From IMG/VR virus record IMGVR_UViG_3300032257_000002, positions 1 to 64,000 of that record: DNA of 64,000 nt. One strand, 5' to 3'. Both the position numbers and the translations under genes were made by a program. The notes under the pieces are model-generated. The model did no database searches. It was given only the letters and a program-made list of their open reading frames with translations, and was not told the DNA's origin. Of the stretch, positions 1,739-57,829 are shown piece by piece (the first letter of the stretch is position 1; every line of letters starts with the position of its first letter). This stretch comes from a virus (taxonomy: Duplodnaviria > Heunggongvirae > Uroviricota > Caudoviricetes).

Positions 1739-2020
1739 TTAAATGAAATATTCTGGGTGAGTGATTTTTAAAGCTTGGAATTCAGGTTGATTTTCAAGAG
1801 CTTCAAATAACAAAGTTCTACAGTTATCATCAGATGTGTATAATGGGCATTCACTGCAGTCTAAATTTCCGCACGTAAAACTTTTTAATACAGTTGGAGG
1901 TTTATGAGGTATTAATGATGTTTTATAAATAAATGCACCACCACTAGCCTTGAATGGTGTATCGTAGATGTCTACTGATCTTCCATTAAACGTAGTGGTT
2001 AGGAGTAGATTACTTTTCAT
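1739..2020 (-). CDS. small Cys-rich protein, PE-tail family (ends ...THPEYFI; C-x4-C-x2-C)
   Basis: ORF track; stop followed by GGATTATC-ATG RBS of the next gene. Confidence 0.55.
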   Translation of the reverse strand: MKSNLLLTTTFNGRSVDIYDTPFKASGGAFIYKTSLIPHKPPTVLKSFTCGNLDCSECPLYTSDDNCRTLLFEALENQPEFQALKITHPEYFI

Positions 2021-3242
2021 TCTTCAGTTTGATAGCGGACATACGGCCTGCGTTCATTGAATCCATAATCTGACCTTCACTAGTAATAAGCCAAATGATA
2101 GGCTTATTAGTAGCTTTGTATGCAGCAACGTCAGACTCATCAATGTAACCATCGGTGATAACCACGATAACTGTAGCGTTGATCTTCGCTTCTTTAAGTT
2201 TAGCGATTGCAGGTGATAGAGTAGTTCCTCCGCAAGCCGAACGTTTGAAGGTTCGCTGTGAGCGCTTAAGAATATGTGGTTTATGAGCTTGTGTGTCTAC
2301 TGGAACATACCATACTTCAGTACCTAGTGATTTACAGATATGTATACATTCACCGATAGCGGATACTAGTTCAGTGTTGGATACAGAACCTGATTCATCT
2401 CCGACAATAACAGGATCAGCTATGTGATCTTTTGTTTTACCTTTGATGTGCTCGAAGTTTGGATTACGTCGATCTCTACGAAGGATGGTTTTTCGGAAAT
2501 TGGCTTTCTTATTAGACACGTAACGTTTAAATTTTTTCTTCCAGTCAACTTCTGACTTGCGAGAGAACATGTTAAGGTAGTCAGAAATTTGGCCAGGTAC
2601 ATCACCACGTGATTTTTGAGTTTCATTAACTGCCTTTTCGATCATGTTTCGAGTAATATCTTTTTGGAGATCTGCGTCACCCTCTGATTCTTGCCATTTA
2701 GAGTGATCATCTAATGGTCCAGGTTTTCCAGTTCCAGGTCCAGTTTGTTCATCGTCTTCAGGTAACTGATCTTTGTCGATGTATTCGTAGTATTGTTCGC
2801 CGGATAATTTATCAGGAACCTTAGTCTTACTAGGTAAGGTAGCAGGTATGATACAGCCTTGTGGTAAATGTTTTTGATCAATGAGCTGATTGATAGCACA
2901 GTCTGTAGCGTAGTTCCAAGCCTTGTGGTTTCGGTCTTCTTTTCGACCTACATGACCATTAAGTATGTGTAGCATTTCGTGCTTCAGTACGGCTAGTCTT
3001 TCTTCAAGTGTGAACTCATCGAAGAGCTCTGGATTGATGTGTAGTTTGTAGTGATCTAAGTGAAAAGATACAGCAGCTGGTGCTTTCATACGTTCAAGTA
3101 CTATAGAGCATTGTCCGATCATATGGCCGTAAAATACATAAGTGGTTTGATAACTGTCGCCAGAAAACATGTTAGCTAGTGCTTCGTTTAATTTTTCTCT
3201 ACTTAAAGGTTTTTGGGTGGTATTTTTTTGTTCATTTTCCAT
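2010..3242 (-). CDS. VWA-domain protein with N-terminal HExxH zincin-like domain (DUF2201-like), partner of the MoxR-type ATPase
   Basis: HEMLH zincin motif at aa ~88-92. C-terminal vWA MIDAS-like DESGSVS...TDG. Immediately upstream of the AAA+ gene. Confidence 0.7.
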   Translation of the reverse strand: MENEQKNTTQKPLSREKLNEALANMFSGDSYQTTYVFYGHMIGQCSIVLERMKAPAAVSFHLDHYKLHINPELFDEFTLEERLAVLKHEMLHILNGHVGRKEDRNHKAWNYATDCAINQLIDQKHLPQGCIIPATLPSKTKVPDKLSGEQYYEYIDKDQLPEDDEQTGPGTGKPGPLDDHSKWQESEGDADLQKDITRNMIEKAVNETQKSRGDVPGQISDYLNMFSRKSEVDWKKKFKRYVSNKKANFRKTILRRDRRNPNFEHIKGKTKDHIADPVIVGDESGSVSNTELVSAIGECIHICKSLGTEVWYVPVDTQAHKPHILKRSQRTFKRSACGGTTLSPAIAKLKEAKINATVIVVITDGYIDESDVAAYKATNKPIIWLITSEGQIMDSMNAGRMSAIKLKNEK

Positions 3243-3943
3243 AATGCCTCCTGTGCATAGTTAATAGGATTTTTAATCAGTATTTCTGAATTACTGGTAT
3301 GTTTAAATATTTTACTGCCTTTATACTTATATTGGTGTAAGTTTTTTAATAGCAGCTTTTCAAGGGTCCAAGCATCTTCTCCATTAAAAAAATGTTGTTC
3401 AAAAATTATTTTATAGCTAGTTCCTTCTTGCTTATACCTTTCGTTTATTTGACGAGAAGTAATCCCTATTTTATATTTACCAGATTTTGGTAAGTACAAT
3501 ATATAAAAAATAGTTTTTTTATTTTTATAGTACGACTTTCTGTAAGCATTAAAATTTTTATTACAAAGAGGGTAACCTCTACCGCGTATATGGTGAGTGG
3601 CTGCTTGCCAAAAACTTCCATGAGTATTGCAGATAATTTCAACTTTTGTATTACGGTTTACGTATTTTACTTTTGAATAATCATAAATGTTATTATGCTT
3701 TTTAGTAGCTAGTTTTAAGAAATCATTTTTAGTGTTTTTCTTATTTACTTTTATTCGTCCGCATGTTGGGCATCCTTGTTTTTTACCTATATGTGCGTAT
3801 CCTACTTGGTTAAATTTGCCGTGTATGGGGCAAATAATATCATACTTATCACTAATAGTAGTAAAATTTGCTATATTGTAAGTATACTTGTTGTTATGAG
3901 CAATATTAGCTTTTTCAATAAAAGTATCTTTAGTGTATCTCAT
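3203..3943 (-). CDS. putative homing endonuclease (T5orf172/GIY-YIG-like C-terminal domain with duplicated N-terminal CxxC Zn-finger modules)
   Basis: FYILYLPKSGKYKIGITSRQINERY resembles the T5orf172/GIY-YIG core. Two C..H..C-x2-C modules. Very AT-rich and Lys-rich. Confidence 0.5.
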   Translation of the reverse strand: MRYTKDTFIEKANIAHNNKYTYNIANFTTISDKYDIICPIHGKFNQVGYAHIGKKQGCPTCGRIKVNKKNTKNDFLKLATKKHNNIYDYSKVKYVNRNTKVEIICNTHGSFWQAATHHIRGRGYPLCNKNFNAYRKSYYKNKKTIFYILYLPKSGKYKIGITSRQINERYKQEGTSYKIIFEQHFFNGEDAWTLEKLLLKNLHQYKYKGSKIFKHTSNSEILIKNPINYAQEALWKMNKKIPPKNL

Positions 3944-4349: not shown

Positions 4350-4592
4350 CTAAATAGTGAGTTCTGGGTAGTCTTCGTAGATTTGTGGAAAAAATGTATA
4401 TAAAGTTAGTTCATGGCTACATTCTTTCTGAATTGGGCATAAGCTACATAAACATCCATTACATTGAGAATAACAACCATTACTTACTACAACATGAAGC
4501 TCATTTCTTTTAAATTCTAAGTCGTCTAAGTCATTAACAGTAGAGTACACGTATAACGGGTAGTTAAGATCGTCTCGTGAATATAAAAGCAT
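4350..4592 (-). CDS. small Cys-rich protein, PE-tail family (ends ...EDYPELTI)
   Basis: ORF track; 8 Cys in 80 aa. Confidence 0.55.
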   Translation of the reverse strand: MLLYSRDDLNYPLYVYSTVNDLDDLEFKRNELHVVVSNGCYSQCNGCLCSLCPIQKECSHELTLYTFFPQIYEDYPELTI

Positions 4593-4599
4593 GTGAATC

Positions 4600-4821
4600 C
4601 TATATAAATAATTCTGGATGAGTGATTTTCAATGATGGGATGTAACGATTAGCGATGATACCTGCGTTTGTAGATATTAGACATTTAGCAGTAATGGTTT
4701 CTAGAAATGGGCAAGTTTCGCAAGGTTGATCATAACAAAAAACTTGAGTAATTTGAGATGGATCGTATACTAAAATACCATCAATGAAGCCTTGTAAGAC
4801 TTCATCTCGAGTAAGTTGCAT
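4600..4821 (-). CDS. small Cys-containing protein, PE-tail family (ends ...KITHPELFI; C-x4-C-x2-C)
   Basis: ORF track; start abuts the upstream stop. Confidence 0.55.
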   Translation of the reverse strand: MQLTRDEVLQGFIDGILVYDPSQITQVFCYDQPCETCPFLETITAKCLISTNAGIIANRYIPSLKITHPELFI

Positions 4822-5258
4822 CAGTAAGCTGGGAAGAAGTTAGTGTCTGCTTTACCAGAGATAGAGTTTTCGATCTTTGCAGATACACGAGTTATCTTTG
4901 CACCACCAGTAGATTTCAGACCAGCTTTCAGTGTTTTGTTATAACGTTTGATATTAGCGATCTTACGTTTATTAACTTTTAGTTTAGCTTCCGGTTGTTC
5001 GATGATCTTGAAAGCGGTATAGTAGTTACGACTTTTCATAGCCATACCGCTGTGAGCTAGTAGGCGATTGATGTTTGAATAAGCATTGACTGTTTTCAAG
5101 CGATCTTGAAGACTGCGCTGATCCATGTCTTTGAGGTATGGAAAGTAACGGGAAAAGCGTTTAACGAATTCGGAAATAGGCATTTCATAACCAGGTTTCA
5201 GTGTTTCACGGTTGCGATATAGAGTAGCGTTAAGACGGCGAACTGTTTGAGAAGTCAT
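4821..5258 (-). CDS. hypothetical basic protein (145 aa)
   Basis: ORF track; Lys/Arg-rich C-terminal half. Confidence 0.5.
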   Translation of the reverse strand: MTSQTVRRLNATLYRNRETLKPGYEMPISEFVKRFSRYFPYLKDMDQRSLQDRLKTVNAYSNINRLLAHSGMAMKSRNYYTAFKIIEQPEAKLKVNKRKIANIKRYNKTLKAGLKSTGGAKITRVSAKIENSISGKADTNFFPAY

Positions 5259-7390: not shown

Positions 7391-9559
7391 TTAAATTCTT
7401 AAGTAAGCTTGTTGTACGTCTATAATTGACATAGTTTTTAAGTCTTCAATACTGTATGTAAGCATAAAGTTGTAGACTTTAAAGTCATCAGATGAGTGCA
7501 AGTGCTTACGAATGTTAGCGTGGTCAGAACCAGTCTTTACAAGGCGGTCTTTAAATCCGCGCATACGTTTCCAGAATTTGTAGAATGGTGTCTTATACTT
7601 CCATTGAAATCCGTTAGTGTCTTCAAATACGAAACCTTCTGATGTTTCAAGTTCGATTGATGCTTGATCTGCAGTACGTCGCCATTGTTGTAAGGATACA
7701 AAGTCTGGATGGAGAGTAGTTAGTTGTTTAACTTTGAAACCGGTAAGATTTCCAAAGGAAGTTAGCTGTCGGTAATTGTATTTTTTGAATACCGGCTCGT
7801 TGTAGATTACGTCTAAAAGTATGACTTGGTCTTCTGTATATTTACAGATGTGTGGATCTTTGTGGTGAATTACTTCAAAAACTAGGGAAATGTTTTTAGA
7901 AGTAACAATGTTTTTTAAAATGTCTGTAAGATGCGGAGTCACTAGTTCACGAAACATATCAGCAAAGTCACCTTTGTCTGTAGATTTAGAAGCTATGAAC
8001 CATTCGTCTTTGTGAACGGACATAATACCTAGGAAACCGTTTTCTTTATTGTAAGCTGCGATCGGACCTTGTATAGTTTTGGACATAGTACGAGATTCAG
8101 TTTCAGGACGTTCATCCCAGTTAAAGAACTTGTCGTATGACCTAGCTACAATGGCTCCTGAGGCGTCTAAGAATAGGCCGCGAGCTTTGGTATTGATCTC
8201 ATCCCAAGTACGCTTGTGGAAGACTTTACGAGAGAAGTTAACAGCGTATACACCAGTTTGTAGGTCTTTAACAATGACATCTTTTTTATGTTGAAAATAA
8301 GATAGTAAATTGTTGGCTTGTTCTAGTTTCACTGCTGGAAGGAAAGAATCCTCTGAATCAAGACTTGTATCAAATGTGTTGTTTTGGATTTCTGTACATG
8401 CAACACCTAATCGGTTAATAGTCATCATTCTAAAAGTACCACCAAATTCTTGATTACCATTAAGATTAAAGGTGCGATCGGTATTTTGTATAGGTGCTTT
8501 GTGAATATTTCGATGACCATGAATTTGATAATGAAAATCAAGTGTGTTGTTAACAAATGCCTGATCTACTTCTTCTGATTCACTGTAAGTTCCTACACCT
8601 TTGATGAAGTCAAAGGTAGGTGTAGTAATACCAGGTAAGCAAGGTAGACCGCCATGAGTAACTGTATAGACTTTATTATGGTATTTAAAGTAAGCTAGCT
8701 GACCTAAACGATTGTAAAAATCTTTAAGATCGGAATTAGCAATACCGGCTGCTTCAAATGCATCGAAAGTGGCTCTACTAGCAAGAGGCATTTTGATGTT
8801 TTGATACGAAAATTTATTGCGGATATAATTTCGTAAATGTACTTCGTGATTACCTGTTAAGAAGAGTGTATTCTTCTCTTTACTTAAAGGATGTAAAAGT
8901 TTGAAAGTTTCAACATGTTGAAGACCGCGATCGAAATAGTCACCTACGAAAATATAAAAGTAATCTTTGTTGAAAGGCTGAGTAACGAAATATTCGTTTA
9001 TCGGATCAGTACAAGAATGAACATCTCCGAATACTACGATTTGCTCATAGTCAGATAAGTCATGTTGTATGTTTGAATATTCTGGCCATTCATTAGGTTT
9101 AATAGTGGTTACCCAGTTCGGTATATGTTCTGTTTGAAGACGGTAGAAGGTACGTTCAATAGCTTCATCAGGTACATGTTTGTAGGAGTCGCGTTGACGA
9201 TTCTGTGTAAGAGCTGTCTGTAAAGGTACATCTGAAAAATCTACAAGAACTACTCGATAACGGTGGGCTTGGGCAAGTTGTCGGTATTTGTTAAGTTGTG
9301 AAGTACGGCTATGTGTAGCGTCAACTACAACTAGTTCTCCACGTTCCATACGAGTTTCAAGCATCTGGAATAATAGATTCCAAACATATTTGTCATTTGT
9401 TGGAGATATGACTTGTTGTCCGGTTTTAATAAGCTGAGGAGACTGTACCATTAAACGGATAAAATCAGGTTCTAATGTGTACATAAATAGATTATTGCTT
9501 TTAATCCATGTTGATTTACCGGAGCCCGGAGTTCCACGAGTTAACACGAGAGTTCGCAT
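7391..9559 (-). CDS. trifunctional polynucleotide kinase / metallophosphatase / RNA ligase (bacterial Pnkp-like RNA repair enzyme)
   Basis: P-loop GTPGSGKST at the N-terminus. Calcineurin-like motifs GDVHSC, GDYFDRG, GNHE in the middle. Nucleotidyltransferase motif I AYNKENGFLG plus EGFVFED and KYK (motifs IV/V) in the C-terminal third. Confidence 0.75.
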   Translation of the reverse strand: MRTLVLTRGTPGSGKSTWIKSNNLFMYTLEPDFIRLMVQSPQLIKTGQQVISPTNDKYVWNLLFQMLETRMERGELVVVDATHSRTSQLNKYRQLAQAHRYRVVLVDFSDVPLQTALTQNRQRDSYKHVPDEAIERTFYRLQTEHIPNWVTTIKPNEWPEYSNIQHDLSDYEQIVVFGDVHSCTDPINEYFVTQPFNKDYFYIFVGDYFDRGLQHVETFKLLHPLSKEKNTLFLTGNHEVHLRNYIRNKFSYQNIKMPLASRATFDAFEAAGIANSDLKDFYNRLGQLAYFKYHNKVYTVTHGGLPCLPGITTPTFDFIKGVGTYSESEEVDQAFVNNTLDFHYQIHGHRNIHKAPIQNTDRTFNLNGNQEFGGTFRMMTINRLGVACTEIQNNTFDTSLDSEDSFLPAVKLEQANNLLSYFQHKKDVIVKDLQTGVYAVNFSRKVFHKRTWDEINTKARGLFLDASGAIVARSYDKFFNWDERPETESRTMSKTIQGPIAAYNKENGFLGIMSVHKDEWFIASKSTDKGDFADMFRELVTPHLTDILKNIVTSKNISLVFEVIHHKDPHICKYTEDQVILLDVIYNEPVFKKYNYRQLTSFGNLTGFKVKQLTTLHPDFVSLQQWRRTADQASIELETSEGFVFEDTNGFQWKYKTPFYKFWKRMRGFKDRLVKTGSDHANIRKHLHSSDDFKVYNFMLTYSIEDLKTMSIIDVQQAYLRI

Positions 9560-11951: not shown

Positions 11952-12180
11952 AGTTCTCCTTTTAATTATGTAGTATACATACTAGAACACCAGCCACTTC
12001 CTTTAACTCAAGCCTAGTGACTGATGCTCCATATGCGTACATACTTCTGCAGATTTATACGTTGGCTCTGCAAGGCCTCGATTGGTACTTTAGCGTCTTA
12101 CTCAGGACGTGTCTTAACAGTTATACTCCGATGAAGACAAATAGAGTAAGCCCGTTTTAAAGCCCTGGCTAGGCCGAATG

Positions 12181-12253
12181 TGCTTCGTACCGGAGTCGAA
12201 CCAGCGACACCATCCCTGGTTGGGGACTGCTCTTCCACCTGAGCTAACGAAGC
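12181..12253 (-). tRNA. tRNA gene (73 nt; isotype undetermined, anticodon loop appears non-canonical)
   Basis: The reverse complement gives GCTTCGT/ACGAAGC acceptor stem and D arm GCTC-AGGTGGAA-GAGC. The T arm is GCTGG-TTCGACT-CCGGT. The anticodon stem GTCCC/GGGAT encloses only a 6-nt loop CAACCA. Confidence 0.6.
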
Positions 12254-13020
12254 GTATGTGATGTGCCCTCCCAGCCTTGCACTGGGTACGTTCTCGACGC
12301 ATCAGTGGTAGTATATACCACCGAAGACTTACGCGCTATTCAGGCCGTATATCTCCCAGTTATCATCCTGGGCTAAGTTTCCTTCGTTTTACTGTACGAA
12401 TGTCATCACTCATAAATCCCCGACAGTCTTGTGACACCAAGAGAAGCGCATAACTTGCTACAAGCAAGAGTGAGAATTGTCCCTACATTGAGAGGTAGGT
12501 ATCACACAGGCGTTACACCTGATAGATGGAGGTGATAAGGCTCCTTAAAATATACTATTATATACTCTGAGGAACTCCCTACTTACCAGGTAGGGATCAG
12601 TACCTAGTTGATTACGCTCAACTATCTAGACTGACTGTTTCAAGCGAAGTATTTATTACAGGTGTACTCAACCTACCACTGTTGCCATTTATACAACTAT
12701 AGTTAATGGTGTAACTGCAATTACTTAAGGTAGCTGCTGACTACCATTATGGAGTGGTAAGCTCCAGTGAACATACCAGGGATGGAGGAAGCTTCTCTCA
12801 TAAATCTGTCCGCTTTGTATGCTCGCTGGAACTTAAGGTGGAAGAATTATATTTACAGACGGTCTTACCTTGCACGTCTATGCCATGACCAGACTCGAAT
12901 TTATCAATACTTATCCACTTGGTGGTTGACTGGTATTCATTGGTTGTACTCTAAAATAGCATGGTGCCTTAATTTTTTAAGGACTAGCCCGATACAAAGC
13001 CTCGGAATTCAGGGCTGTTA

Positions 13021-13095
13021 GGGCCTCATACTGGATTTGAACCAGTGACCTCCTGTTTAATCGACAGGTGCTCTAACCTATGAGCTAATGAGGCC
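13021..13095 (-). tRNA. tRNA gene (75 nt incl. extra 5' G pairing with discriminator C, His-like feature; anticodon loop CGATTAA non-canonical)
   Basis: The reverse complement gives G-1 + GCCTCAT/ATGAGGC acceptor. D arm GCTC-ATAGGTTA-GAGC. Anticodon stem CCTGT/ACAGG is perfect, with loop CGATTAA. T arm ACTGG-TTCAAAT-CCAGT. Confidence 0.6.
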
Positions 13096-13425
13096 TATAT
13101 TAGTAGCCAAGGGACTGCAACCCTTGGACAGGATTATTCGGACACGTTTCAGAAAACTTGCTTAGTGTAAATCCTTTACCCTTTTTGTTTAATGTCTCAT
13201 GCAGCCTATCCGCCATATTATTCTGGTGATCAATCCAGGGCCGGTAGTACTACTGCTTCCATCACTACTAATGTAACTAATACGTACGTAAAGCCCGCTA
13301 GTTTTAACCATATCAGAGATACCGGCCCCATATAGGCCGCTGTAGAGCTCTGTTTATGAAGCACGGGTAAGTTGCTCGTCTATTTAATCAACGGCCTTGT
13401 ACCGTAACCCGGCTGGTGTTGATAG

Positions 13426-19028: not shown

Positions 19029-19502
19029 TTAGTCCTTTGACATAGGTAATAAGCCTTTATGAATATCCTGATGACAGCTGTGACATACAGTTTCTAATTG
19101 ATCTAGGGTAAATGACATAGTGTGTATACCGTTGTAATGAGTATGGTGAGCCTGTTTGAGGTCACCTAGGTATCCACATCGAACACAACGAAAGCCATCT
19201 CGCTTAAAAGTAGAATAACGTAGTGTAGACCACGTATCTGACTTTAAGTATTCACGGTACTGTAAGTAAAACTCTTCAGGTATAGTGAAAAGTGTTGAGG
19301 TGTGAGTAGATGGTGTTGGTTGAACGGTAGGTGTATATGGTTCATGGTAGACGGGTTTTTGTTTAACGGTGTTTGTACTAGCTATAAAAGCTAGGGATAT
19401 GATAAAGCCGAATGGACCGGCAATTACACTGCATAGTATGATGAATAGCAGTGCTGTTAGGTAATGGAGAAACGTACGAAGTTTAGTCTTCTTTTGTTTC
19501 AT
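19029..19502 (-). CDS. HNH endonuclease-domain protein with N-terminal transmembrane anchor
   Basis: C-terminal CVRCGYLGDLKQAHHTHYNGIHT...CHSCHQDIH (HNH-like C-x2-C..HH..N..C-x2-C..H). N-terminal LLFIILCSVIAGPFGFIISLAFIA. Confidence 0.55.
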   Translation of the reverse strand: MKQKKTKLRTFLHYLTALLFIILCSVIAGPFGFIISLAFIASTNTVKQKPVYHEPYTPTVQPTPSTHTSTLFTIPEEFYLQYREYLKSDTWSTLRYSTFKRDGFRCVRCGYLGDLKQAHHTHYNGIHTMSFTLDQLETVCHSCHQDIHKGLLPMSKD

Positions 19503-21991: not shown

Positions 21992-22057
21992 TGTAATTCC
22001 TTATGTTATATACAGAAAACCATATACTGTAGATTACAGTACATGATTTACGGTATG

Positions 22058-22222
22058 CTAGAGATGCAGTTTAAGTTTGATGGTTATGCCGTATTGTTCT
22101 TTAAGGATTTGTTTGGTAAGTACATAGTTCTGTGTTTTCTGGTAGATGTAGTTGACTAAGTCTCGTACATCACCGTATGTATTACCAGGAGAAAAACTAG
22201 TGATTACTATTGAGGTTTTCAT
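22058..22222 (-). CDS. hypothetical small protein (54 aa; start moved to internal ATG with AAGGAGATGCT RBS)
   Basis: Restarting at 22222 removes the overlap with the upstream gene and gives a strong RBS. Confidence 0.4.
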   Translation of the reverse strand: MKTSIVITSFSPGNTYGDVRDLVNYIYQKTQNYVLTKQILKEQYGITIKLKLHL

Positions 22223-22241
22223 AGCATCTCCTTGTTGATGG

Positions 22242-22439
22242 TTAATGGCTGTGAATAACTTTGGCAGCAATTCGATGAACTCTGACTTCAGTGCCATTCG
22301 CTATAGGAAAGATCGATGATCTGTTACCTAATGTATTGCGAACTTGTTCTTTCATTTCTGCTGCTTGTGAAGACACTTGTGTGTCACCTGCTGTAGTCCA
22401 GTCACCGTTAACTTTTGTTTGAATGAGATACATAATCAC
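22242..22439 (-). CDS. hypothetical protein (65 aa)
   Basis: ORF track. Confidence 0.4.
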   Translation of the reverse strand: MIMYLIQTKVNGDWTTAGDTQVSSQAAEMKEQVRNTLGNRSSIFPIANGTEVRVHRIAAKVIHSH

Positions 22440-22600: not shown

Positions 22601-22639
22601 GTTGGTTCCTTACAGGCCGAAGCCTGATGTACGTTAGTG

Positions 22640-22978
22640 TCAGTTGACTCCAGACGAAAGTGCAGAAAGTGCGAGTAGCATCTCTGATTCATTTGCGCTA
22701 TCCGGGAACGCTAAACTGTATTCATGTGTGAGTCTGTCTTCATCGCTCATACCTGCGAAACGTACGAGTTCTTCGACATACCAACGCTGTCCTGCAACAA
22801 ACTTTTTCCAGTCTTTGCCTTCGGCTTCAGCTTTTCTTTCAGCGAGTAGTTTGATCATTTCATCTTGTTCGTCGGTAGTCATAGTCGACGTGATTCCGAG
22901 TTCCTTGATTTTTTGTATCTTACCAACTGCGCGTCTGTAACCTGATGCCAACGCTTGTGGTTGTTTCTCTAGCATTGT
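22640..22978 (-). CDS. hypothetical protein (112 aa; start at internal ATG with AAGGAATACACA RBS)
   Basis: Track ORF 22640..23101 shortened to the Met that has an SD; the upstream part is a structured leader. Confidence 0.5.
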   Translation of the reverse strand, partial: TMLEKQPQALASGYRRAVGKIQKIKELGITSTMTTDEQDEMIKLLAERKAEAEGKDWKKFVAGQRWYVEELVRFAGMSDEDRLTHEYSLAFPDSANESEMLLALSALSSGVN

Positions 22979-23176
22979 GTATTCCTTATGTGTAGATAAC
23001 CATGACTGGTCTCGGAGAAAGACAGCCGACGAAGGAGTGCTGTCAAGCAAAAAACGGTAAAACCTACGGTTCGATGGGATGTACGTACTCCTATAGTACA
23101 TCGTAAAATAGAATTGGGTAACAAAACAATAGCTCTACCTGTGGTAGATTGCTATATGCGTAATGTCACACCCCAA

Positions 23177-23195
23177 GTCCCTCCGAAGAGGAACC
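23177..23195 (-). promoter_or_regulatory. conserved hairpin (RNA: GUUCCUC-UUCG-GAGGGAC), copy 3
   Basis: Seen in sequence; about 10 nt after the RNAP stop. Confidence 0.5.
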
Positions 23196-23205
23196 AAGGT
23201 ATGCA

Positions 23206-25200
23206 CTATGCACTAAGGAAATAGTGTGATTCTTCAATCATATCTTTAGTTGCAGTACCGTAGAATAGAGTAGGCTTTGGAGGCTTGTTGCCTTCATAGT
23301 TCTCTATAATGTGGTCGATAGCCTGCTCATAGAGACATGCATCAAATTCCACTAATAGTGAATCTTTGTAAGCTTTTCTTACAATGTGCATATCATTTGC
23401 ATGTACCAGGAAGTTATCATGCTTGAACATGCCTCCTGTGTTGTTGTTAACTAGAGCTCTGCCAACCATTCTCAATGATGTACCATCAATAGAGTGTGTA
23501 ATGTTAGCATATAGACCTCGTAGTTTGTTGGTCTTGCCTTGAGCCTTGTCGTCTCCCACTCTGCCGTATGTTGGATTACCTTTGGCATCCTTAAACATTG
23601 GCATTTCTTTGTGGATCTTAGTCTGAGTGTATGACTTCAGTGTACTGTTAGATAGAGCATACAGATCTAGAGGCACTGACTCTGTGTAAGCAATAGACTG
23701 AGCTCTGAAGCCATCTGTCGTATTCCATAGTAGAGATGTATTCTCGTTAGAAGCTACTGCTACTCCCCAATCTGCGATAGCTGAGATGTTCAGTACTTCA
23801 TTACCATATGCCTCTACCATCATAGCCTTAGCTGCTGATGTGCTGATATCAAGGACACTAGCTACTGTACGAATACTAGATCCGTGTAGTAGTGGCTGAT
23901 GGATATCTTTTGCCATCTGACGAGTCTCTAGACCTAGAGATTCCTGTAGCTTGCCGTGTGAATCCAGCTGATCTGGGTGTCCTCCGACATTAGCTCCAAT
24001 CATCATCTTAGGAGATCTGAAACCGATACCACCATGCTGTAGTCCACCATTAGTTGCATCCTCTGATAGAAGGAAGCGTGATGGTTCTTCATTATAGTAG
24101 TCGTCGATAGCTTGTGCTAGTCTACTGTTGTATAGGTCTTTGCCCATATCTCCAGTAGGTTTACGTAACTCTGCTAGGTAGTGCTCTACATTAGCGTCGA
24201 AACGTTCTTCGGCATCACTATGGTGTGTTCTACCATCAATGATAACTACCGCTGAGTATTTCAGTGCATCTGCTCCGCGATCATCTATAATTCTAGCTTC
24301 CGCTAGTTCATACAGACTAGTTTCAAAGGTCTTACCATGAGGATTGAACCCCATTTCTGTAAGATCGTAGTATGATCTAGTTCTATAGTCTAACCACATA
24401 GATAGGTAGAAGCAGTCTTCTTGTTGTAGAAGGCTAAACTTCTCTACCTGCTTACTGACGATATCGTTTAACACTAGTTTATCTATACGCACTTCACCAG
24501 TGCCTTCGATAGCGTTACGATACCATTCAGTCTGCTCTAGGTATACTCGTACTTGATCAGGATCGATATTGATCAGCTTTAGACCGATCTGTGAAGCAGA
24601 ACGAAGGTAGTCTTTCTCAGACTTGTTAAGCTTGAGAGCCTTACCTCCATTACGTACTTTCAAACGTTTCTGCATTACAGTACCTGGTCTTAGGTGAACT
24701 CCCGGAATATATAGAGATGCTTTCTCTTTGTATACTCCGAAAGAGATGAACGTAGTAGTCTTCCAGACAATACGTCCTGTCTCTTCGTTGCGTTCTTGTG
24801 TAGTCTTAGCTGTATGCTGGATGTGACCTAAGTCCATCAATGTTTGGATTATCTGGAATGCTACCATAGACCTCACTATTTCATAGTGGAAGTTGATTAC
24901 TGGTAGTGTCCCTATTTCCAAACGTATTGCAAGCTTACCTACGATTACCTGTAGGTATTCTTCATCTGCATATAGTTCGTTAAGTATCTGTACTACTTTG
25001 CCTGAGTCCATTCTGTGAATGATCCAACCAATTGCGTATGCTAGGTTATCTGTGTAACCACCTCGTAGTAGTTGACGACGTCCCTCGAATTCACGTACAT
25101 GAGATCGTACCTTTTCTACCATGTCGATGGTTGCCCATGACTGGATTAGGTCTGACTTAGCTGGCTTTGTGAATACTGGGTTTGTGTTGTTACTTAACAT
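23206..25200 (-). CDS. single-subunit T7-like DNA-dependent RNA polymerase (664 aa; single-chain equivalent of the N4 RNAPII two-subunit enzyme)
   Basis: LDYRTRSYY (T7 DWRGRVY-like), NPHG, and motif A-like SEDATNGGLQHGG. Motif B-like R..K....YG in RTVASVLDISTSAAKAMMVEAYG. Motif C FKHDNFLVHAND (T7 IHDSFGT). Confidence 0.75.
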   Translation of the reverse strand: MLSNNTNPVFTKPAKSDLIQSWATIDMVEKVRSHVREFEGRRQLLRGGYTDNLAYAIGWIIHRMDSGKVVQILNELYADEEYLQVIVGKLAIRLEIGTLPVINFHYEIVRSMVAFQIIQTLMDLGHIQHTAKTTQERNEETGRIVWKTTTFISFGVYKEKASLYIPGVHLRPGTVMQKRLKVRNGGKALKLNKSEKDYLRSASQIGLKLINIDPDQVRVYLEQTEWYRNAIEGTGEVRIDKLVLNDIVSKQVEKFSLLQQEDCFYLSMWLDYRTRSYYDLTEMGFNPHGKTFETSLYELAEARIIDDRGADALKYSAVVIIDGRTHHSDAEERFDANVEHYLAELRKPTGDMGKDLYNSRLAQAIDDYYNEEPSRFLLSEDATNGGLQHGGIGFRSPKMMIGANVGGHPDQLDSHGKLQESLGLETRQMAKDIHQPLLHGSSIRTVASVLDISTSAAKAMMVEAYGNEVLNISAIADWGVAVASNENTSLLWNTTDGFRAQSIAYTESVPLDLYALSNSTLKSYTQTKIHKEMPMFKDAKGNPTYGRVGDDKAQGKTNKLRGLYANITHSIDGTSLRMVGRALVNNNTGGMFKHDNFLVHANDMHIVRKAYKDSLLVEFDACLYEQAIDHIIENYEGNKPPKPTLFYGTATKDMIEESHYFLSA

Positions 25201-25420
25201 GATTTACTCCTGTGGATTATTAATCATCTTGCCTGTTATACAGCTGGTCTGTGTTAGTGACTGACTCCTTGCTCGTAGTTTATAGACGTTACGGTCTACC
25301 CTTTCAGGCTTACTCGACTATGTAGTATGCGTAATGCTTGTCGTAGCACTACGTTTAGTATAAGCATTCATAGATGCTCCTTTGTAGGAATTTGGTACCT
25401 AAGTGAATAGGACACCATCA

Positions 25421-25438
25421 TCCCACCCGAAGGTGAGA
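25421..25438 (-). promoter_or_regulatory. conserved hairpin (RNA: UCUCACC-UUCG-GGUGGGA), copy 2
   Basis: Seen in sequence; 10 nt after the stop of 25448..25798. Confidence 0.5.
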
Positions 25439-25447
25439 CTGTGGTAT

Positions 25448-25798
25448 CTATTTACCAGCTTTTGCTTTCGCTGCTTCTAATCTAGCCTGTATGTCGGCTA
25501 GACGTTGAGCTTGGTTGGCACGGAATTCTTTACCTAGACCTAACTCTTCAAAGTTATCTGCAACAATACGATGAGCATTACGATCGGCAAACTTCTGGAG
25601 TCTGTCTGTTTCGATGTCAGCGATGTCGTTGTGTGTCTTGGCTATCTGTGCTTCTGTCTTGACCATGGTTGCAGTCTCTTTAACTGTACCTCCTATAATA
25701 CTGATAGCTGTTTTAGTAGCTGTGACTGTATTACGACGATCAGTGTAGAAGAACCAAGCGAATATAGCGATTGCAATAATGATGATAATGGTAAACAT
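25448..25798 (-). CDS. membrane-anchored coiled-coil protein (116 aa from internal ATG 25798)
   Basis: AAGGAAAC RBS before MFTIIIIIAIAIFAWFFY TM helix. The upstream ATG 25843 lacks an RBS. Confidence 0.5.
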   Translation of the reverse strand: MFTIIIIIAIAIFAWFFYTDRRNTVTATKTAISIIGGTVKETATMVKTEAQIAKTHNDIADIETDRLQKFADRNAHRIVADNFEELGLGKEFRANQAQRLADIQARLEAAKAKAGK

Positions 25799-25915
25799 GA
25801 TGTTTCCTTTTGAAGTACAATGACTTCGATACGGCTTACCCATCTAGTGGTGCGTGTGCTATCTGTCTTAACGTCCTATGTTCAAGCATTCGTGGACGAG
25901 AGCTAGGCTCTATAA

Positions 25916-25933
25916 CTCCCACCGAAGTGAGAG
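25916..25933 (-). promoter_or_regulatory. conserved hairpin (RNA: CUCUCAC-UUCG-GUGGGAG), copy 1
   Basis: Seen in sequence; 8 nt after the stop of 25942..26088. Confidence 0.5.
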
Positions 25934-25941
25934 CTAAGAAA

Positions 25942-26088
25942 CTATTTCTGCTTCATGATTTGGCGAGCGTTCTCTCGTAGTATGTTGAGGACTAGCTTGT
26001 CTGTATCTGTCTGCTTGTCGTTAGACTTTAACATCTTGATACGGATAGATATCTCAGCTAGTTCTTTTTTCTGTGTGTGTAGTAACAT
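25942..26088 (-). CDS. hypothetical small basic protein (48 aa from ATG with AAGGAG RBS)
   Basis: First gene of the leftward block; the hairpin lies 8 nt after its stop. Confidence 0.4.
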   Translation of the reverse strand: MLLHTQKKELAEISIRIKMLKSNDKQTDTDKLVLNILRENARQIMKQK

Positions 26089-26170
26089 GGTATACTCCTT
26101 GAGCCTTTTAGTGTGGATGCTGAGCACATAGTGGTGGTAGTCCCTGGCAGCTGAATAAAAAGATAGTTAG

Positions 26171-26240
26171 AATCAACTCCCGGGGGGGTAGTCGACCAAC
26201 AAGCCCACGACCCCACACCCCTACCCCAATACAAAATCTG
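26171..26240. other. GC/C-rich tract (CTCCCGGGGGGGTAGTCGACCAACAAGCCCACGACCCCACACCCCTACCCCAA) in an otherwise AT-rich genome; candidate genome-terminus / packaging region
   Basis: Seen in sequence; contains CCCGGG and GTCGAC; sits between the divergent blocks. Confidence 0.3.
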
Positions 26241-47707: not shown

Positions 47708-48913
47708 ATGGCAACAAATGTATATGGTAACGGTACAACAACATCCACAGCGGGTGCTAATACTATCGTTCATTACTATGATCGTGCTGGTGTAAATGCA
47801 GCAAACCGTGTTAACGTATATCAACAATTCTCGGATCGTAAATCGATGCCACAGAGATATGGTAAAACGTTCAAAATTTCTCGTTTCGAACACATGTATG
47901 ATCGTGCATTCGACGATGCAGACTTCGCGGCTAAAGGTTATATGACTGCACGTGATATCGCTGATATGAACACTGCTTTGTCAGCTGCTACACTCGCTGA
48001 AGGTGCTGCGGATGTTAATAAGCGTTCACTACAGAAAGTTACTTACTCAACAGAGTTTGCTCGTTACGGTGAGATGATTGATTATACTGATGAAGTTGAT
48101 ATCTGGTCTGAAGACTATATCCAGGTTCGTTATCGTGAAGAACTAGGTGAACTAGCTAACTCTCGTATGGAAGATCTTATTCAGCGCGATATGCTTGGTA
48201 CAACTACTGTAATGTATTCTGGTGCTGCTGGTGCAATCACTGAAATCGGTACAGGTGCTGCTGCTGATGGTTCAACAGATGCTGACCACGTCGTTTCTTA
48301 TGACTTGATTCGTAAAGCTGTTCGTAAGCTGACTCGTAACCGTGCTAAGAAGAATACTCAGATCGTTACAGGTTCTACAAAGATTGGTACAACTCCGGTT
48401 GCTAAAGCATTCTATGCTGTTATCGGTGCAGATGTAAAGTCAGATCTTGAAACTCTTACTCGTGGTTCTACTTACGAAACAGAATTCGTATACACACCTG
48501 TTCACAAATATGCTGCTGCTTCGACAATGGCTGAAGGTGAAGTTGGTCAAATGCACGAAGTTCGTTTCATTGAAGCTGAGTCTGCAGTAGTTTATCGTGA
48601 AGCAGGTGCTAATCCACCAGCATCTTACCTAGGTGACCTACAGGTTTCTGGTGTTATTGATGCAGCTTCTGTTACTCCTGCTGATCGTGGACAGTTTGAC
48701 GTATTTCCAATCCTTTTCCCAACTGAAGGTGCTTTTGCAACTGTCGGTCTTAAAGGTCTTGAGAAAATCAAGTTTAACTCTAAGTCTCCAGCTCAGGTTG
48801 AGTTGATTAACCCGTACGGAACTACAGGTTTCTTCTCTTACAACTTTTTCTACGCAGGTATCATCCTGAAAGAGGAAGCACTTTTAAAAGTATTAGTGGC
48901 AGCAAGAAATTAA
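47708..48913 (+). CDS. major capsid protein (401 aa)
   Basis: Position after the scaffold-like gene, size, and codon usage typical of highly expressed genes (cgt/ggt/gct bias). Confidence 0.65.
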   Translation: MATNVYGNGTTTSTAGANTIVHYYDRAGVNAANRVNVYQQFSDRKSMPQRYGKTFKISRFEHMYDRAFDDADFAAKGYMTARDIADMNTALSAATLAEGAADVNKRSLQKVTYSTEFARYGEMIDYTDEVDIWSEDYIQVRYREELGELANSRMEDLIQRDMLGTTTVMYSGAAGAITEIGTGAAADGSTDADHVVSYDLIRKAVRKLTRNRAKKNTQIVTGSTKIGTTPVAKAFYAVIGADVKSDLETLTRGSTYETEFVYTPVHKYAAASTMAEGEVGQMHEVRFIEAESAVVYREAGANPPASYLGDLQVSGVIDAASVTPADRGQFDVFPILFPTEGAFATVGLKGLEKIKFNSKSPAQVELINPYGTTGFFSYNFFYAGIILKEEALLKVLVAARN

Positions 48914-48953
48914 ACCCTGCGTATAATTTTCTTCTAAGCTAATCCATGCTATA

Positions 48954-48970
48954 CTCCTCTAAAAGAGGAG
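48954..48970 (+). promoter_or_regulatory. hairpin CTCCTCT-AAA-AGAGGAG sequestering the Shine-Dalgarno of the HNH homing endonuclease gene
   Basis: The GAGGAG of the RBS forms the 3' arm; ATG at 48976. Confidence 0.4.
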
Positions 48971-48975
48971 GTAGT

Positions 48976-50139
48976 ATGAACCTACAACTACAAAAAATAT
49001 GCTCAAAGTATAACGGTGTAGTCCACAAAGACTTTCCAAACTACATAATTTCCCGACATGGTGAAATATACTCACTTAAACGACAAAGGTTCCTTGACAA
49101 AACTTTACGAAAACGTGATCCACAAGATCTCAATAGTAAATATGATGAGATGGTCCATATAGTAGTAAATAATACTCCCCGAACTATTGCAGTTCATAGG
49201 CTATTAGCGACTGTTTTCATCCCTAATCCAGGTAATAAAGACACTGTAAACCATATTGATGGAAATTCTTCTAATAACTCGCTTAGTAATCTCGAATGGA
49301 TGACGCAGAGCGAGAATTCATCACATGCCCATGCACTAAACTTGATATCCGGCAAGTACACTAAATGCGTTGTAAGTACTATAAAGTATAAAGAAGAGTA
49401 TGTTGCCACTTATAGTAGTTTAACCGAGGCAGCAAAAACTGTTGATAATGTAAATCCTCAACGCTGTATTGGATTAATAGCTGCAGCAGCAGTTAATAAT
49501 CAGTCAGATAAGGTAAGTGTAAATGGTGCACCTTACACCTCCCAAGGGTATGTATGGAGGTACGCAAGCAAACAGAAGAAACAATATATACAGGAAAGTG
49601 TTGAATACGCTGATTGGTCGATATTAGATGTAGACTACAAGGTTTTTTCTGAGAACACAGACTACTTAATAACAGTAGATGGTAGAGTATATGACAACGT
49701 AAAAGAAAGATGGCTCACACTGTCGGTAATTACTGCGAAAGGTAATAGATTGCCTTATACAACCGTCTCATTACGGAATGGCAGTACTTATAAACAGTAT
49801 AGGGTAGCCAAACTGGTAGCAGGTGCTTACGGAAAGAGCTACACTAAAGTAGACTTTATAGATGGAAACATTTGTAACTGCCATCTGGATAACCTATGTG
49901 AGAAAGAAGCTGGTACGAATTCAAGGCCAGTGATTGCCTACAAGTTAGTATGGAAAGACGTAAATATAGAGTACAAGAATTCTACGAGAGAAGTAGGACA
50001 ACTTACTGGAATAACTGTAAAAGCGATACCTGAAATAATAATACAAAACAAAGATATACCTCTGCAACTAGAGTACACGGATACTACATGTCCCTACACA
50101 AGAAATGGTTATGTCCTACGAGGCTTAAGTAAAAGTTAA
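48976..50139 (+). CDS. HNH homing endonuclease (HNH_3 family) inserted downstream of the capsid gene
   Basis: NPGNKDTVNHIDGNSSNNSLSNLEWMTQSENSSHAHA is a classic HNH_3 core. NUMOD-like NYIISRHGEIYS. The RBS lies inside a hairpin. Confidence 0.7.
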   Translation: MNLQLQKICSKYNGVVHKDFPNYIISRHGEIYSLKRQRFLDKTLRKRDPQDLNSKYDEMVHIVVNNTPRTIAVHRLLATVFIPNPGNKDTVNHIDGNSSNNSLSNLEWMTQSENSSHAHALNLISGKYTKCVVSTIKYKEEYVATYSSLTEAAKTVDNVNPQRCIGLIAAAAVNNQSDKVSVNGAPYTSQGYVWRYASKQKKQYIQESVEYADWSILDVDYKVFSENTDYLITVDGRVYDNVKERWLTLSVITAKGNRLPYTTVSLRNGSTYKQYRVAKLVAGAYGKSYTKVDFIDGNICNCHLDNLCEKEAGTNSRPVIAYKLVWKDVNIEYKNSTREVGQLTGITVKAIPEIIIQNKDIPLQLEYTDTTCPYTRNGYVLRGLSKS

Positions 50140-50774: not shown

Positions 50775-50791
50775 GGCAACCTAGGTTTTAC
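50771..50791 (+). terminator. intrinsic terminator-like hairpin CTAGG-GCAA-CCTAG + GTTTTA
   Basis: Seen in sequence; overlaps the stop of 50259..50774. A second UUCG-loop hairpin GAAGGTAC-TTCG-GTATCTTC follows at 50795-50814. Confidence 0.45.
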
Positions 50792-50843
50792 TAGAAGGTA
50801 CTTCGGTATCTTCGTGTAAGATTATAAATAGTAAGGATGCTAG

Positions 50844-57771: not shown

Positions 57772-57829
57772 GGAATACTAAAGCAAAAAATAGGTATACT
57801 ATACCATAAATACTACATACGGGGATAGA

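Follow-up and report, generated by a model that had tools for sequence, protein, structure and literature searches.

Composite UUCG-capped RNA stem-loops at the gene ends of an N4-type phage genome

Background

Phage N4 possesses UNCG-capped terminators directly after the stop codons of early genes, that of RNAPII included, the cap being CUCG after gp1, UUCG after gp2 and UACG after gp16 (RNAPII). Their stems of 8–11 bp carry G·U pairs on the sense strand, their helices measure 9–11 bp, and they have their own runs of 4–7 U residues. The early region of the same phage, which encodes a virion RNA polymerase (vRNAP) as well as RNAPII, also contains the promoters P1–P3, which function as template-strand DNA hairpins (PMC4496689). 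Read directly in L011, these promoters have 3-nt loops (PMC4496689), of the form GC-TYC-GC on the sense strand, within perfect Watson-Crick stems of 5–7 bp; TTGG or TTATGG follows, and the hairpins lie 13–52 nt upstream of start codons.

The early operon of phage T7, which is transcribed by host RNAP, contains the RNase III sites R0.5, R1, R1.1 and R1.3. These are mutually similar irregular hairpins without U-tracts, located at or just past early-gene stops and flanking the phage RNAP gene; they share the conserved sequence AAGGUC...UGGCCUUUAUGAUU, lack UUCG caps, and their cleavage has been demonstrated. After cleavage the hairpin remains on the upstream mRNA as a 3' stabiliser. In phage T4, intercistronic C(UUCG)G hairpins were reportedly described by Tuerk et al. 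in 1988. These simple, extra-stable hairpins cluster in the gaps between phage genes and are believed to influence the ends and the stability of transcripts. A literature search on N4 early-terminator signals and on the CUUCGG hairpins of T4 returned nothing usable.

The window analysed here is a stretch of 64,000 nucleotides, positions 1–64,000 of the IMG/VR record IMGVR_UViG_3300032257_000002 (Caudoviricetes). Its first-pass annotation had drawn attention to three UUCG-capped hairpins near the start of a leftward block of early genes and had likened them to the N4 promoters, with RNase III or stability elements as alternatives.

Genes and genome plan

Both a virion RNAP homologue and an RNAPII-like enzyme are encoded in the window, which bears out the N4-type plan supposed for this genome. 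The RNAPII-like enzyme (23206–25200, minus strand) is a 664 amino-acid T7-type single-subunit RNA polymerase with matches to Pfam RNA_pol (E=4e-4) and phrog_414 (E=3e-12), for which 92 homologues were found. In BLASTP it aligns collinearly with the N4 RNAPII subunits gp15 and gp16, of which it is the fused, single-chain counterpart. The IMG/VR scan with this protein recovered no relative, and a contig look-up found no exact copy on record.

The virion RNAP homologue is an open frame of at least 2,069 residues (57794–64000, plus strand) that runs off the right end of the window and shows the invariant T7-type motifs A, B and C in alignment. The best fold matches of its AlphaFold model (pLDDT 78) are N4 gp50 and mini-vRNAP (E=1e-14), which makes it homologous in structure to N4 vRNAP. 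This link came through structure prediction and fold search only, for the PDB yielded nothing to the ORF by sequence or by profile. Nothing was returned either by a PDB sequence search with the PT11-V19 protein or by a word-indexed homologue search with the vRNAP segment. The polymerase specified by this giant ORF likely transcribes the early block.

That block runs leftward from a hub. Its first gene (25942–26088, minus strand) specifies 48 amino acids and is preceded by the Shine-Dalgarno sequence AAGGAG; the second (25448–25798, minus strand) specifies 116 amino acids from a Shine-Dalgarno-supported ATG at 25798. The RNAP gene follows and, beyond it, a gene for 111 amino acids (22640–22975, minus strand), again with a Shine-Dalgarno-supported ATG (22975). 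Searched against PHROG, the small early proteins showed no ribonuclease and no known function.

Composite stem-loops at gene ends

The three hairpins were found on the minus strand where they had been annotated: CTCTCAC-TTCG-GTGGGAG within 25913–25936, TCTCACC-TTCG-GGTGGGA within 25420–25439 and GTTCCTC-TTCG-GAGGGAC within 23176–23195. They extend to 10, 8 and 8 bp, respectively, with two G·U pairs each. The distance from the stop codon, TAG in all three cases, to the 7-bp stem is 8, 9 and 11 nt, close to the 8–10 nt that had been claimed. When the TTCG pattern was sought throughout the window, five TTCG-looped stems of at least 8 bp were observed against 0.10 expected, and none of 300 dinucleotide shuffles reached that number.

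The hairpins are the tips of larger composite RNA stem-loops of 36–66 nt, which were scored with a covariance model built from the window elements. Element A (25907–25942, minus strand; 36.5 bits, E=1e-8) consists of the 36-nt core TAGCTCTCAC-UUCG-GUGGGAGUUA together with a lower stem, and begins at the TAG stop of the first early gene. Element B (25412–25447, minus strand; 42.3 bits, E=2e-10) reads AUACCA / CA / GUCUCACC-UUCG-GGUGGGAU / GA / UGGUGU, its first base lying directly past the TAG stop of the 116-residue gene. Element C (23156–23213, minus strand; core 23168–23202; 35.4 bits) forms an extended helix of about 26 bp, which encloses the RNAP stop codon TAG (23206–23208) and the 11-mer CATTACGCATA (23155–23165). 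The RNAP gene is thus placed between elements B and C. The extended helix of element B likewise contains its stop codon.

Further copies were detected in the window. A short fourth early hairpin, the 5-bp CAGGC-UUCG-GCCUG (22613–22626, minus strand), stands 13 nt past the stop of the 111-residue gene, immediately ahead of the next ribosome-binding site. A full composite element with the computed fold UUUUAC / UA / GAAGGUAC-UUCG-GUAUCUUC / GU / GUAAGA occurs in the late, structural block (50786–50821, plus strand; 37 bits, E=9e-9), 11 nt past the stop of the ORF at 50259–50774. A weaker relative (12540–12575, minus strand; 20.4 bits, E=0.002) combines a 9-bp upper stem and an AUAG loop with a 6-bp lower stem and a 1x1 loop; it occupies a region devoid of ORFs, close to a tRNA gene.

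Each element has a lower stem at its base; above this comes either a 1-nt bulge or a 2x2 internal loop, the latter reading 5'-CA/GA-3' or UA/GU, and then an upper stem of 8–10 bp with a C(UUCG)G cap. The internal loop keeps a fixed distance of 8 bp from the cap, and the bulge lies at 10 bp. The closing C-G pair is invariant in the 14 aligned elements, the loops of which are UUCG in 11 and UACG, CUCG and AUUG in one each, and the 5' base of the upper stem carries a conserved YAG. Helix length was scored in 17 elements, N4 controls excluded; 16 possess a quasi-continuous helix of 12–26 bp with a median near 19, some copies being short (12 bp in C_L008, 15 bp in the late element), and the value of 5 bp for B_L004 was judged an artefact of an alternative minimum-energy fold.

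No U-tract (at least 5 U in 8 nt) follows the stem in any of the five window copies, the tails of which read UAGAGCCU, GAUGGUGU, UGGGGUGU, UAAGGAAC and GUGUAAGA. In its place is a GU-rich 3' strand that pairs with the CA-rich 5' flank. With U-tracts absent from all three, the early hairpins are not classic intrinsic terminators, in agreement with the first-pass annotation. They differ in the same respects from the N4 terminators, having no U-tract, paired GU-rich and CA-rich flanks, a fixed internal loop and about 19 bp in total. In position they are the counterparts of the UNCG-capped early terminators after gp1, gp2 and gp16 of N4.

Conservation and covariation

The elements are conserved across the lineage: in nine related metagenomic genomes the corresponding genes end in elements of this architecture whose stems differ in sequence. 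All 112 upper-stem cells of the aligned elements are paired, and in 12 of the 14 pairs both partners have changed. Overall, 91.7% of cells are paired against 61% in shuffled alignments, the observed covariation score was reached by none of 500 shuffles, and the paired share fell to 44–51% when the 3' partner was slid by 1–3 columns. The lower stem, which played no part in finding the elements, covaries as well (e.g. ACCA/UGGU vs ACUA/UAGU).

In L005 the orthologue of element A (4802–4837) has a completely different stem. The flanks of element B, ACCACA...GAUGGUG, recur in L005, L007 and L004, the last of which has ACUA/UAGU as a compensatory change, and orthologues of element C follow the RNAP stop in L004, L007, L008, L010 and L012. 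Convergent genes follow the RNAP gene of L005, and even there a 14-bp hairpin stands 6 nt past the RNAP stop. Matches of the covariance model in the new genomes L012 and L013 were confined to the sense strand, downstream of stop codons. Among the first 11 sources searched, its sole match outside the training elements was the UUCG-capped terminator after N4 gp2 (E=0.03). Rfam, at gathering and at permissive thresholds, placed no family on the elements, and a nucleotide search of GenBank phages with the 5-kb region gave no match.

The elements are anchored to stop codons, the 36-nt core starting a median of 1 nt past the stop (range -9 to +23); the next start may be as near as 22 nt or as far away as 257 nt. 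Such tight spacing could point to a role in translation: the elements would prevent re-initiation or coupling, help ribosomes to leave the mRNA, or register whether the upstream ORF is being translated. The lower stem extends over the stop codon, which in elements B and C lies within the extended helix, and the upper stem, with its conserved YAG at the 5' base, begins 8–11 nt past the stop, just beyond the footprint of a terminating ribosome. Against this, the distances are spread from -9 to +23 nt, neighbouring cistrons are already uncoupled by long leaders, and closeness to a stop codon is equally expected of 3'-end elements. To our knowledge no translational mechanism requires this architecture, and we consider such a role very unlikely.

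The folding strand and the promoter reading

The fold belongs to the transcript (sense) strand. Nineteen of the 112 upper-stem cells are G·U on the sense strand and hence C·A mismatches on the template strand. For 16 of the 17 elements the sense strand folds more stably than the antisense strand, although part of this asymmetry is built in, because the scan that found most of them read the sense strand only and allowed G·U. Template-strand DNA folds with only -2.5 to -5.0 kcal/mol (z -0.36 to -1.36), no better than shuffles, and owing to the C·A mismatches its stem amounts to just 3–4 bp adjoining the loop. UNCG caps confer stability specifically on RNA. The much weaker antisense fold ruled out a DNA cruciform or a bidirectional element.

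These results bear on the proposal that the hairpins are N4-type early promoters, that is, DNA hairpins extruded from supercoiled DNA and bound by the injected virion RNAP, which would start transcription about 11–15 nt past the loop. The likeness to N4 P1–P3 and to the early and middle promoters of LUZ7 is that of short early-region hairpins in a phage encoding a vRNAP, with three copies inside the first 3 kb of the early block, as with P1–P3. All three hairpins have a G at 15 and at 17 nt past the loop centre, and the middle promoters of LUZ7, GC-rich hairpins with 3–4-nt loops, also count for the proposal (PMC9163698). However, each of the three has a 4-nt loop, which reads CGAA on the template strand, against 3 nt in the early promoters of N4 and LUZ7, and the template-strand hairpin is weak. 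Stem sequences vary freely among copies and orthologues, only the pairing, the closing C-G and the loop being kept, whereas the N4 promoters share sequence. The extended pairing and the G·U pairs indicate RNA. The perfect Watson-Crick stem, the triloop with its following TTGG or TTATGG, the location 13–52 nt ahead of a start and the template-strand action of the N4 promoters are all lacking in the elements. The anchor is a stop codon, and the next start follows at a very variable distance. The first early gene has no element between it and the hub, one element belongs to the late structural block, and the covariance model matches no N4 promoter. With a 4-nt loop, unconserved stems, stop-codon anchoring and a weak template-strand hairpin, the promoter assignment did not hold up, and we regard it as extremely unlikely.

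Leaders

The long leaders that had been noted downstream of the hairpins were confirmed, at about 117, 220 and 200 nt to the Shine-Dalgarno-supported starts at 25798, 25200 and 22975, as was their higher GC content (41–47% against 39.4% for the window). The 11-mer said to be shared by two of them is present in both, but at 23155–23165 and 25326–25336 and not at the annotated sites. It is not enriched above chance once mismatches are allowed and forms the 3' strand of a helix at both sites, and was rejected as a promoter.

Other promoter candidates fared no better. No recurring consensus was found across the leaders. Each genome has the motif GACCGTAACGTC...TAAACTA only once, with a GNRA loop as its cap, which makes it an RNA element; the leader upstream of the RNAP gene contains a covarying GNRA-capped hairpin, and the leaders look like structured 5' UTRs. 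An N4-type triloop-hairpin consensus is not shared across the hub and leaders, where there are only two locally conserved triloop hairpins (25899–25911 and 23134–23148), and Sigma-70-like sites are rarer than in shuffled sequence.

Processing or termination

The reading that we prefer, and to which we give about an even chance, is that the elements are gene-end RNA processing or stability signals that mark and protect the 3' ends of cistrons. The evidence thus favours the alternative named in the first-pass annotation, RNase III or stability elements, over promoters. Starting at the hub, a polymerase, presumably the injected virion RNAP as it is in N4, would transcribe the early block in the leftward direction and read through every element. 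Once some 40–65 nt had emerged, the RNA would fold into an irregular helix of about 19 bp, serving as an intercistronic processing or stability signal like the early RNase III sites of T7. A double-strand-specific endonuclease may cleave the internal loop and lower stem or close to them, and 3'-to-5' exonucleases may halt at the structure, either instead of this cleavage or besides it. By either route the upstream mRNA would be left with a protective UUCG-capped 3' hairpin, and the structured leaders and genes further down, that for RNAP among them, would form mRNAs of their own, independent in stability and translation.

Several features argue for action after transcription and not for termination. 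All five window copies lack a U-tract; the 3' flank has been selected to pair with the 5' flank, which is possible only once the polymerase has moved on; helices of 15–26 bp compare with 9–11 bp in the N4 terminators; and the internal loop lies at a fixed distance from the cap. One copy is in the late block, which in N4-like phages is transcribed by a different polymerase (PMC4496689). The RNase III sites of T7 are likewise multi-copy, free of U-tracts, situated at stops and flanking the RNAP gene, and the elements have the same intercistronic layout on what would be a polycistronic transcript. They differ from the T7 sites in their UUCG caps, in the lack of the conserved T7 sequence, in somewhat shorter helices and presumably in their polymerase, which for the T7 sites is host RNAP, and they are predicted sites whereas cleavage at those of T7 has been demonstrated. 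The T4 hairpins, in turn, have no described lower stem and internal loop, and belong to an unrelated phage lineage and transcription system.

Certain observations count against processing. Some helices are short for RNase III, and the UUCG cap is typical of terminators, not of the T7 RNase III sites. At the same positions N4 has genuine terminators, whose caps and 8-bp stems match those found here; this favours an origin, and perhaps a function, in termination. Promoters may also lie inside the leaders, and read-through would be unneeded if every unit had its own.

The elements might be unconventional, probably leaky, U-tract-independent terminators or pause sites for the virion RNAP or the RNAPII-like enzyme, descended from N4-type early terminators; we see this as possible, though on balance doubtful. 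An 8–10-bp UUCG hairpin in the exit channel would release or stall the polymerase, and each leader would carry a promoter. A stable GC-containing hairpin does stand soon after the stop on the transcript strand, N4 has UNCG hairpins of 8–11 bp with G·U directly after the stops of gp1, gp2 and gp16/RNAPII, and the model built from the window elements matches the gp2 terminator. In LUZ7, canonical intrinsic terminators account for 14 of 61 mapped termination sites, most sites being at stable structures (PMC9163698). A UUCG cap that folds quickly and an upper stem of constant length, about 8 bp, fit co-transcriptional action, and the long conserved leaders, in two of which the conserved triloop hairpins occur, could house promoters. 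On the other side, every copy is without a U-tract. Hairpin-dependent release by T7-type and bacterial polymerases requires a U-tract. Covariation in the lower stem, moreover, cannot act while the 3' flank is within the polymerase, the RNAP gene lies downstream of two elements with no recognisable shared promoter ahead of it, and one copy is in the late block.

We think it improbable, but worth stating, that the combination of YAG base, 8-bp stem, UUCG cap, 2x2 A·G-containing loop and CA/GU lower stem is a lineage-specific signal read by a phage component and not a substrate of host RNase III or exonucleases. It could then make the virion RNAP, a very divergent enzyme of 2,128 aa, or the single-chain RNAPII terminate or pause independently of a U-tract, or it could be bound or cleaved by an early phage protein so far unrecognised. 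If true, this would be a new class of gene-end signal for single-subunit RNA polymerases.

Implications for N4-like phages

The members of this poorly known, N4-related marine lineage have genomes of about 100 kb, a shortened vRNAP and a fused RNAPII, and keep the three-polymerase scheme of N4. The lineage has rebuilt its gene-end signals, with loss of the U-tract and gain of a conserved lower helix and internal loop, and the covariance model provides a sequence-only marker of early transcription-unit boundaries in these genomes. The elements raise the question of whether highly diverged members of the T7 polymerase family can terminate without a U-tract, and that of whether N4-like phages, like T7, balance early expression, including that of their own RNAP, by RNA processing. 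They also advise caution: N4 has two distinct classes of hairpin side by side, and in an N4-like genome a hairpin close to the start should not be taken for a promoter by default.

Genome plan and RNA polymerases

The 664 amino acid ORF at 23206–25200 (minus strand) specifies a divergent T7-type RNA polymerase (RNAP). Coliphage N4 gp15 aligns with the N-terminal portion of this protein and N4 gp16 with the C-terminal portion, collinearly; the protein is therefore the single-chain counterpart of the heterodimeric N4 RNAPII, apparently either a fusion of the two subunits or a form that was never split. All 92 homologs found in metagenomes are single chains or fragments. A giant open frame (57794–64000, plus strand) of at least 2,069 amino acids continues past the right end of the window; judged from a 96%-identical representative (P0093) the full product contains ~2,128 residues, versus 3,500 in N4, and its homologs range from 2,000 to 3,500 residues. 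It is too divergent for a match in PHROGs or in PDB sequence and profile searches. In the alignment of this family the T7-family signature, D-x2-A-S-G, R-x3-K-x7-Y and H-D (motifs A, B and C), is invariant, and the best fold matches of its AlphaFold model (pLDDT 78) are N4 gp50 and mini-vRNAP (E 1e-14), ranking ahead of the T7 and mitochondrial RNAPs. As modeled, the protein is a structural homolog of the N4 virion RNAP (vRNAP).

The portal, terminase and major head proteins are also N4-like, the portal being ~43% identical to those of the Schitoviridae, and the nearest isolates are the Alteromonas podoviruses AD45-P1, PT11-V19 and R22Y. Because it possesses an RNAPII-like chain, N4-like head and packaging proteins and a vRNAP homolog, this phage is organized on the N4 plan. 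Its divergent hub (~26.1–26.5 kb) is the topological equivalent of the joined N4 genome ends, and its leftward block is the equivalent of the N4 early and middle region.

Hairpins at gene ends

The first-pass annotation described three UUCG-capped hairpins on the minus strand of the leftward block, and a pattern search of the window found them just as stated. With G·U pairs allowed, H1 (25913–25936) has 10 bp while H2 (25420–25439) and H3 (23176–23195), which lie on either side of the RNAP gene, have 8 bp, two pairs in each hairpin being G·U. In each case the preceding stop codon is TAG, and the distances from it to the 7-bp stem are 8, 9 and 11 nt. The long, GC-richer leaders reported to follow them were likewise recovered, being ~117, ~220 and ~200 nt in length when measured to start codons with Shine-Dalgarno support (GC 41–47% versus 39.4% in the window). 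The pattern count that the annotation had proposed, made on both strands of the window, gives five stems with a TTCG loop and 8 bp or more against 0.10 expected, a number attained in none of 300 dinucleotide shuffles. Four of the five, H1–H3 and a copy in the late block (50794–50813), lie directly 3' of stop codons on the coding strand. A shorter UUCG hairpin of only 5 bp (22613–22626) also follows a stop codon. Seven genes in the window have a 3' gap of at least 25 nt containing a hairpin at least as stable as −6 kcal/mol; five of these hairpins carry the UUCG cap, and none is followed by a U-tract.

The TTCG tetranucleotide is over-represented across the whole window (397 versus 310 ± 17 in shuffles), well beyond hairpin loops. 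Another kind of gene-end hairpin, 15 bp long and lacking the UUCG cap (AAATCATGTACTGTA-atc-TACAGTATATGGTTT; 22017–22049, minus strand), lies 8 nt past the stop codon of the gene at 22058–22297. The late copy comes after the ORF at 50259–50774; between this ORF and the major head gene (47708–48913) is inserted one of three HNH endonuclease ORFs (2010–3242 and 19029–19502, minus strand; 48946–50139, plus strand).

Structure of the elements

Folding with flanking sequence revealed that H1–H3 are the apical parts of bigger stem-loops, here termed elements A, B and C. A lower stem of 5–11 bp, its 5' strand CA-rich and its 3' strand GU-rich, is surmounted by a 2×2 internal loop (5'-CA/GA-3' or UA/GU) or a 1-nt 3' bulge, and then by an upper stem of 8–10 bp capped by C(UUCG)G. 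The quasi-continuous helix measures 12–26 bp (median ~19) and spans 32–66 nt. The RNAP stop codon and an 11-mer that the annotation had noted in two leaders both fall inside the extended helix of element C; the second copy of this 11-mer belongs to another conserved hairpin, in leader B, whose 3' arm it forms.

UNCG caps and G·U pairs are features of RNA. The sense-strand fold is more stable than the antisense in 16 of 17 elements, an asymmetry that is partly built in because the first scan covered only the sense strand and allowed G·U; the two-strand covariance-model search and positional orthology are free of this bias. With DNA parameters the template-strand hairpins of H1–H3 are no better than shuffled sequence (z −0.4 to −1.4), only 3–4 bp remaining beside the loop because the G·U pairs turn into C·A mismatches.

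Conservation and covariation

Early regions were compared in nine related genomes (L004, L005, L007–L010, L012, L013 and PT11-V19); RNAP identity is given as 49–67% for this set and separately as 28% for PT11-V19 (L001). The same architecture recurs at the same gene ends, that of the RNAP gene and that of the small gene preceding it, built on stems of unrelated sequence with UUCG or UACG as the cap in most cases. Across 14 aligned elements standard pairs occupy 91.7% of cells versus 61% after shuffling, with 112 of 112 upper-stem cells paired, an invariant closing C-G pair, and changes on both sides in 12 of 14 pairs. The covariation score was reached by none of 500 shuffles, and sliding the 3' partners by 1–3 columns left pairing at only 44–51%. 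The lower stem, which played no part in finding the elements, covaries too (e.g., ACCA/UGGU versus ACUA/UAGU).

Searching the window with a covariance model gave four strong matches, every one on the coding strand, and one weaker match at 12540–12575. Two genomes outside the training set contain additional copies, again on the coding strand, the strongest three starting 1–23 nt past stop codons. Over 17 elements the median distance from the stop codon to the start of the core is 1 nt (range −9 to +23), and the next start codon is 22 to 257 nt away. Although convergent genes come after the RNAP gene in L005, a 14-bp hairpin still lies 6 nt past the RNAP stop codon. No Rfam family covers the elements. 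PT11-V19 (2476–3336) has hairpins without U-tracts after the stop codons of early small genes, with differing loops (UUAACG, a U-rich loop and GUAGUUU).

The weaker match falls in an ORF-free stretch (12303–13425, minus strand) containing a tRNA gene (13022–13094; Rfam 60 bits) and several stable hairpins. Just outside, and overlapping the ORF at 12114–12302, ARAGORN placed a second tRNA-like gene (12180–12253) with no anticodon assigned. In addition to tRNA genes the genome has a tRNA-repair type enzyme, a 722 amino acid fusion of polynucleotide kinase-phosphatase and RNA ligase (7391–9559, minus strand; phrog_8238, E 1e-195).

Leaders and hub

The leaders are strongly conserved in nucleotide sequence and contain further covarying RNA hairpins. 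A GNRA-capped hairpin followed by UAAACUA (25283–25298, minus strand) lies ~95 nt upstream of the RNAP start. Its stem of 3–5 bp covaries (GAC/GTC, GTC/GAC, CTC/GAG) and includes a C·Y mismatch; it occurs once per genome and is recognizable in nine aligned genomes (L004, 5898–5907; L005, 5900–5909; L007, 1425–1434; L008, 5936–5945), although its L009 version is degenerate. It may control the RNAP gene as a translational operator. The same leader holds a 17-codon mini-ORF (25318–25371, minus strand) with a strong Shine-Dalgarno sequence (AAAGGAG), conserved in position in L004 and L007. Inside it is a covarying hairpin (25330–25353, minus strand; GTAGTGCT/AGCATTAC here versus GTAGGACT/AGTCTTAC in L005), the 3' arm of which is the 11-mer.

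The only N4-promoter-like shapes in the leaders are two triloop hairpins with perfect stems on the minus strand, AGAGC-cta-GCTCT (25899–25911; sequence conserved in L005) and TCTACC-aca-GGTAGA (23134–23148; conserved in L004 and L007), which have no consensus in common; nor does any promoter-like consensus recur across the hub and the three leaders. In leader C (~23020–23060, minus strand) a T-run, TTACCGTTTTTTGCTT, precedes the hairpin GACAGC-12 nt-GCTGTC; L004 has a near-identical sequence here, and in L007 the hairpin shows covariation (GCTAGC/GCTAGC). On the minus strand, the hub segment 26111–26232 contains G-runs and then a C7 run (CTACCCCCCCGGGAG, 26182–26188), conserved in the L004 and L005 hubs and resembling the G-runs and C9 run of the N4 left end. 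A conserved block, CTATGTGCTCAGCATCCAC (26111–26131), lies immediately upstream of the first early gene. Taken together, these features are possible markers of the physical end of the genome and of the first early promoter.

Comparison with N4 and proposed function

The N4 vRNAP promoters, on the sense strand at 90–102 (GTTGC-ttc-GCAAC), 557–573 (AAGAAGC-tcc-GCTTCTT) and 4546–4562 (AAGCTGC-tcc-GCAGCTT), have perfect stems, 3-nt loops and a common GC-TYC-GC followed by TTGG or TTATGG, and lie 13–52 nt upstream of start codons; these features are the defining ones in PMC4496689. A second class of N4 hairpins, directly 3' of stop codons, consists of hairpin-plus-U-tract terminators with helices of 9–11 bp, found after gp1 (GGAGGCTC-ctcg-GAGTCTCC, then TTTT), gp2 (GGACTACC-ttcg-GGTAGTCC, then TTTTT) and the RNAPII gene gp16 (AAGGCTATCCC-tacg-GGGGTAGCCTT, then TATTTTTTT). 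In the 11 sources first searched, the sole non-training match of the covariance model was the gp2 terminator (E 0.03), and no N4 promoter was matched; the elements are therefore counterparts of the N4 early terminators, not of the promoters. The annotation had preferred N4-type hairpin promoters, a reading not supported given the weak template-strand fold, the unlikeness to N4 promoters and the lack of any N4-promoter match. Very probably the elements act at the RNA level as gene-end signals and are not promoters.

They differ from the N4 early terminators in having no U-tract and an extended helix. Bacterial and T7-type polymerases would not be expected to release the transcript at a hairpin that lacks a U-tract. 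That they are nonetheless unconventional, leaky terminators or pause sites for the phage polymerases is the main competing explanation, a possible but rather unlikely one; it draws on the N4 homology and on phage LUZ7, in which just 14 of the 61 sites where termination was mapped are canonical (PMC9163698). The late block of N4-like phages is transcribed by a different polymerase (PMC4496689), and one full copy of the element sits there. Pairing between the 5' and 3' flanks has been selected and can act only once the polymerase has moved on. The missing U-tract, this flank pairing and the late-block copy favor a post-transcriptional role, and they support what the annotation had offered as its alternative, RNase III or stability elements.

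The closest working model is provided by the early RNase III sites of phage T7: several hairpins resembling one another, none with a U-tract, which begin at stop codons and lie on both sides of the RNAP gene. The chances are about even that the elements are processing or stability signals. The long irregular helix would then serve in intercistronic processing and stability, and the upstream mRNA would keep a UUCG-capped 3' hairpin, a mechanism of which we infer every functional step. The elements are a new variant of the known phage gene-end hairpin signals.
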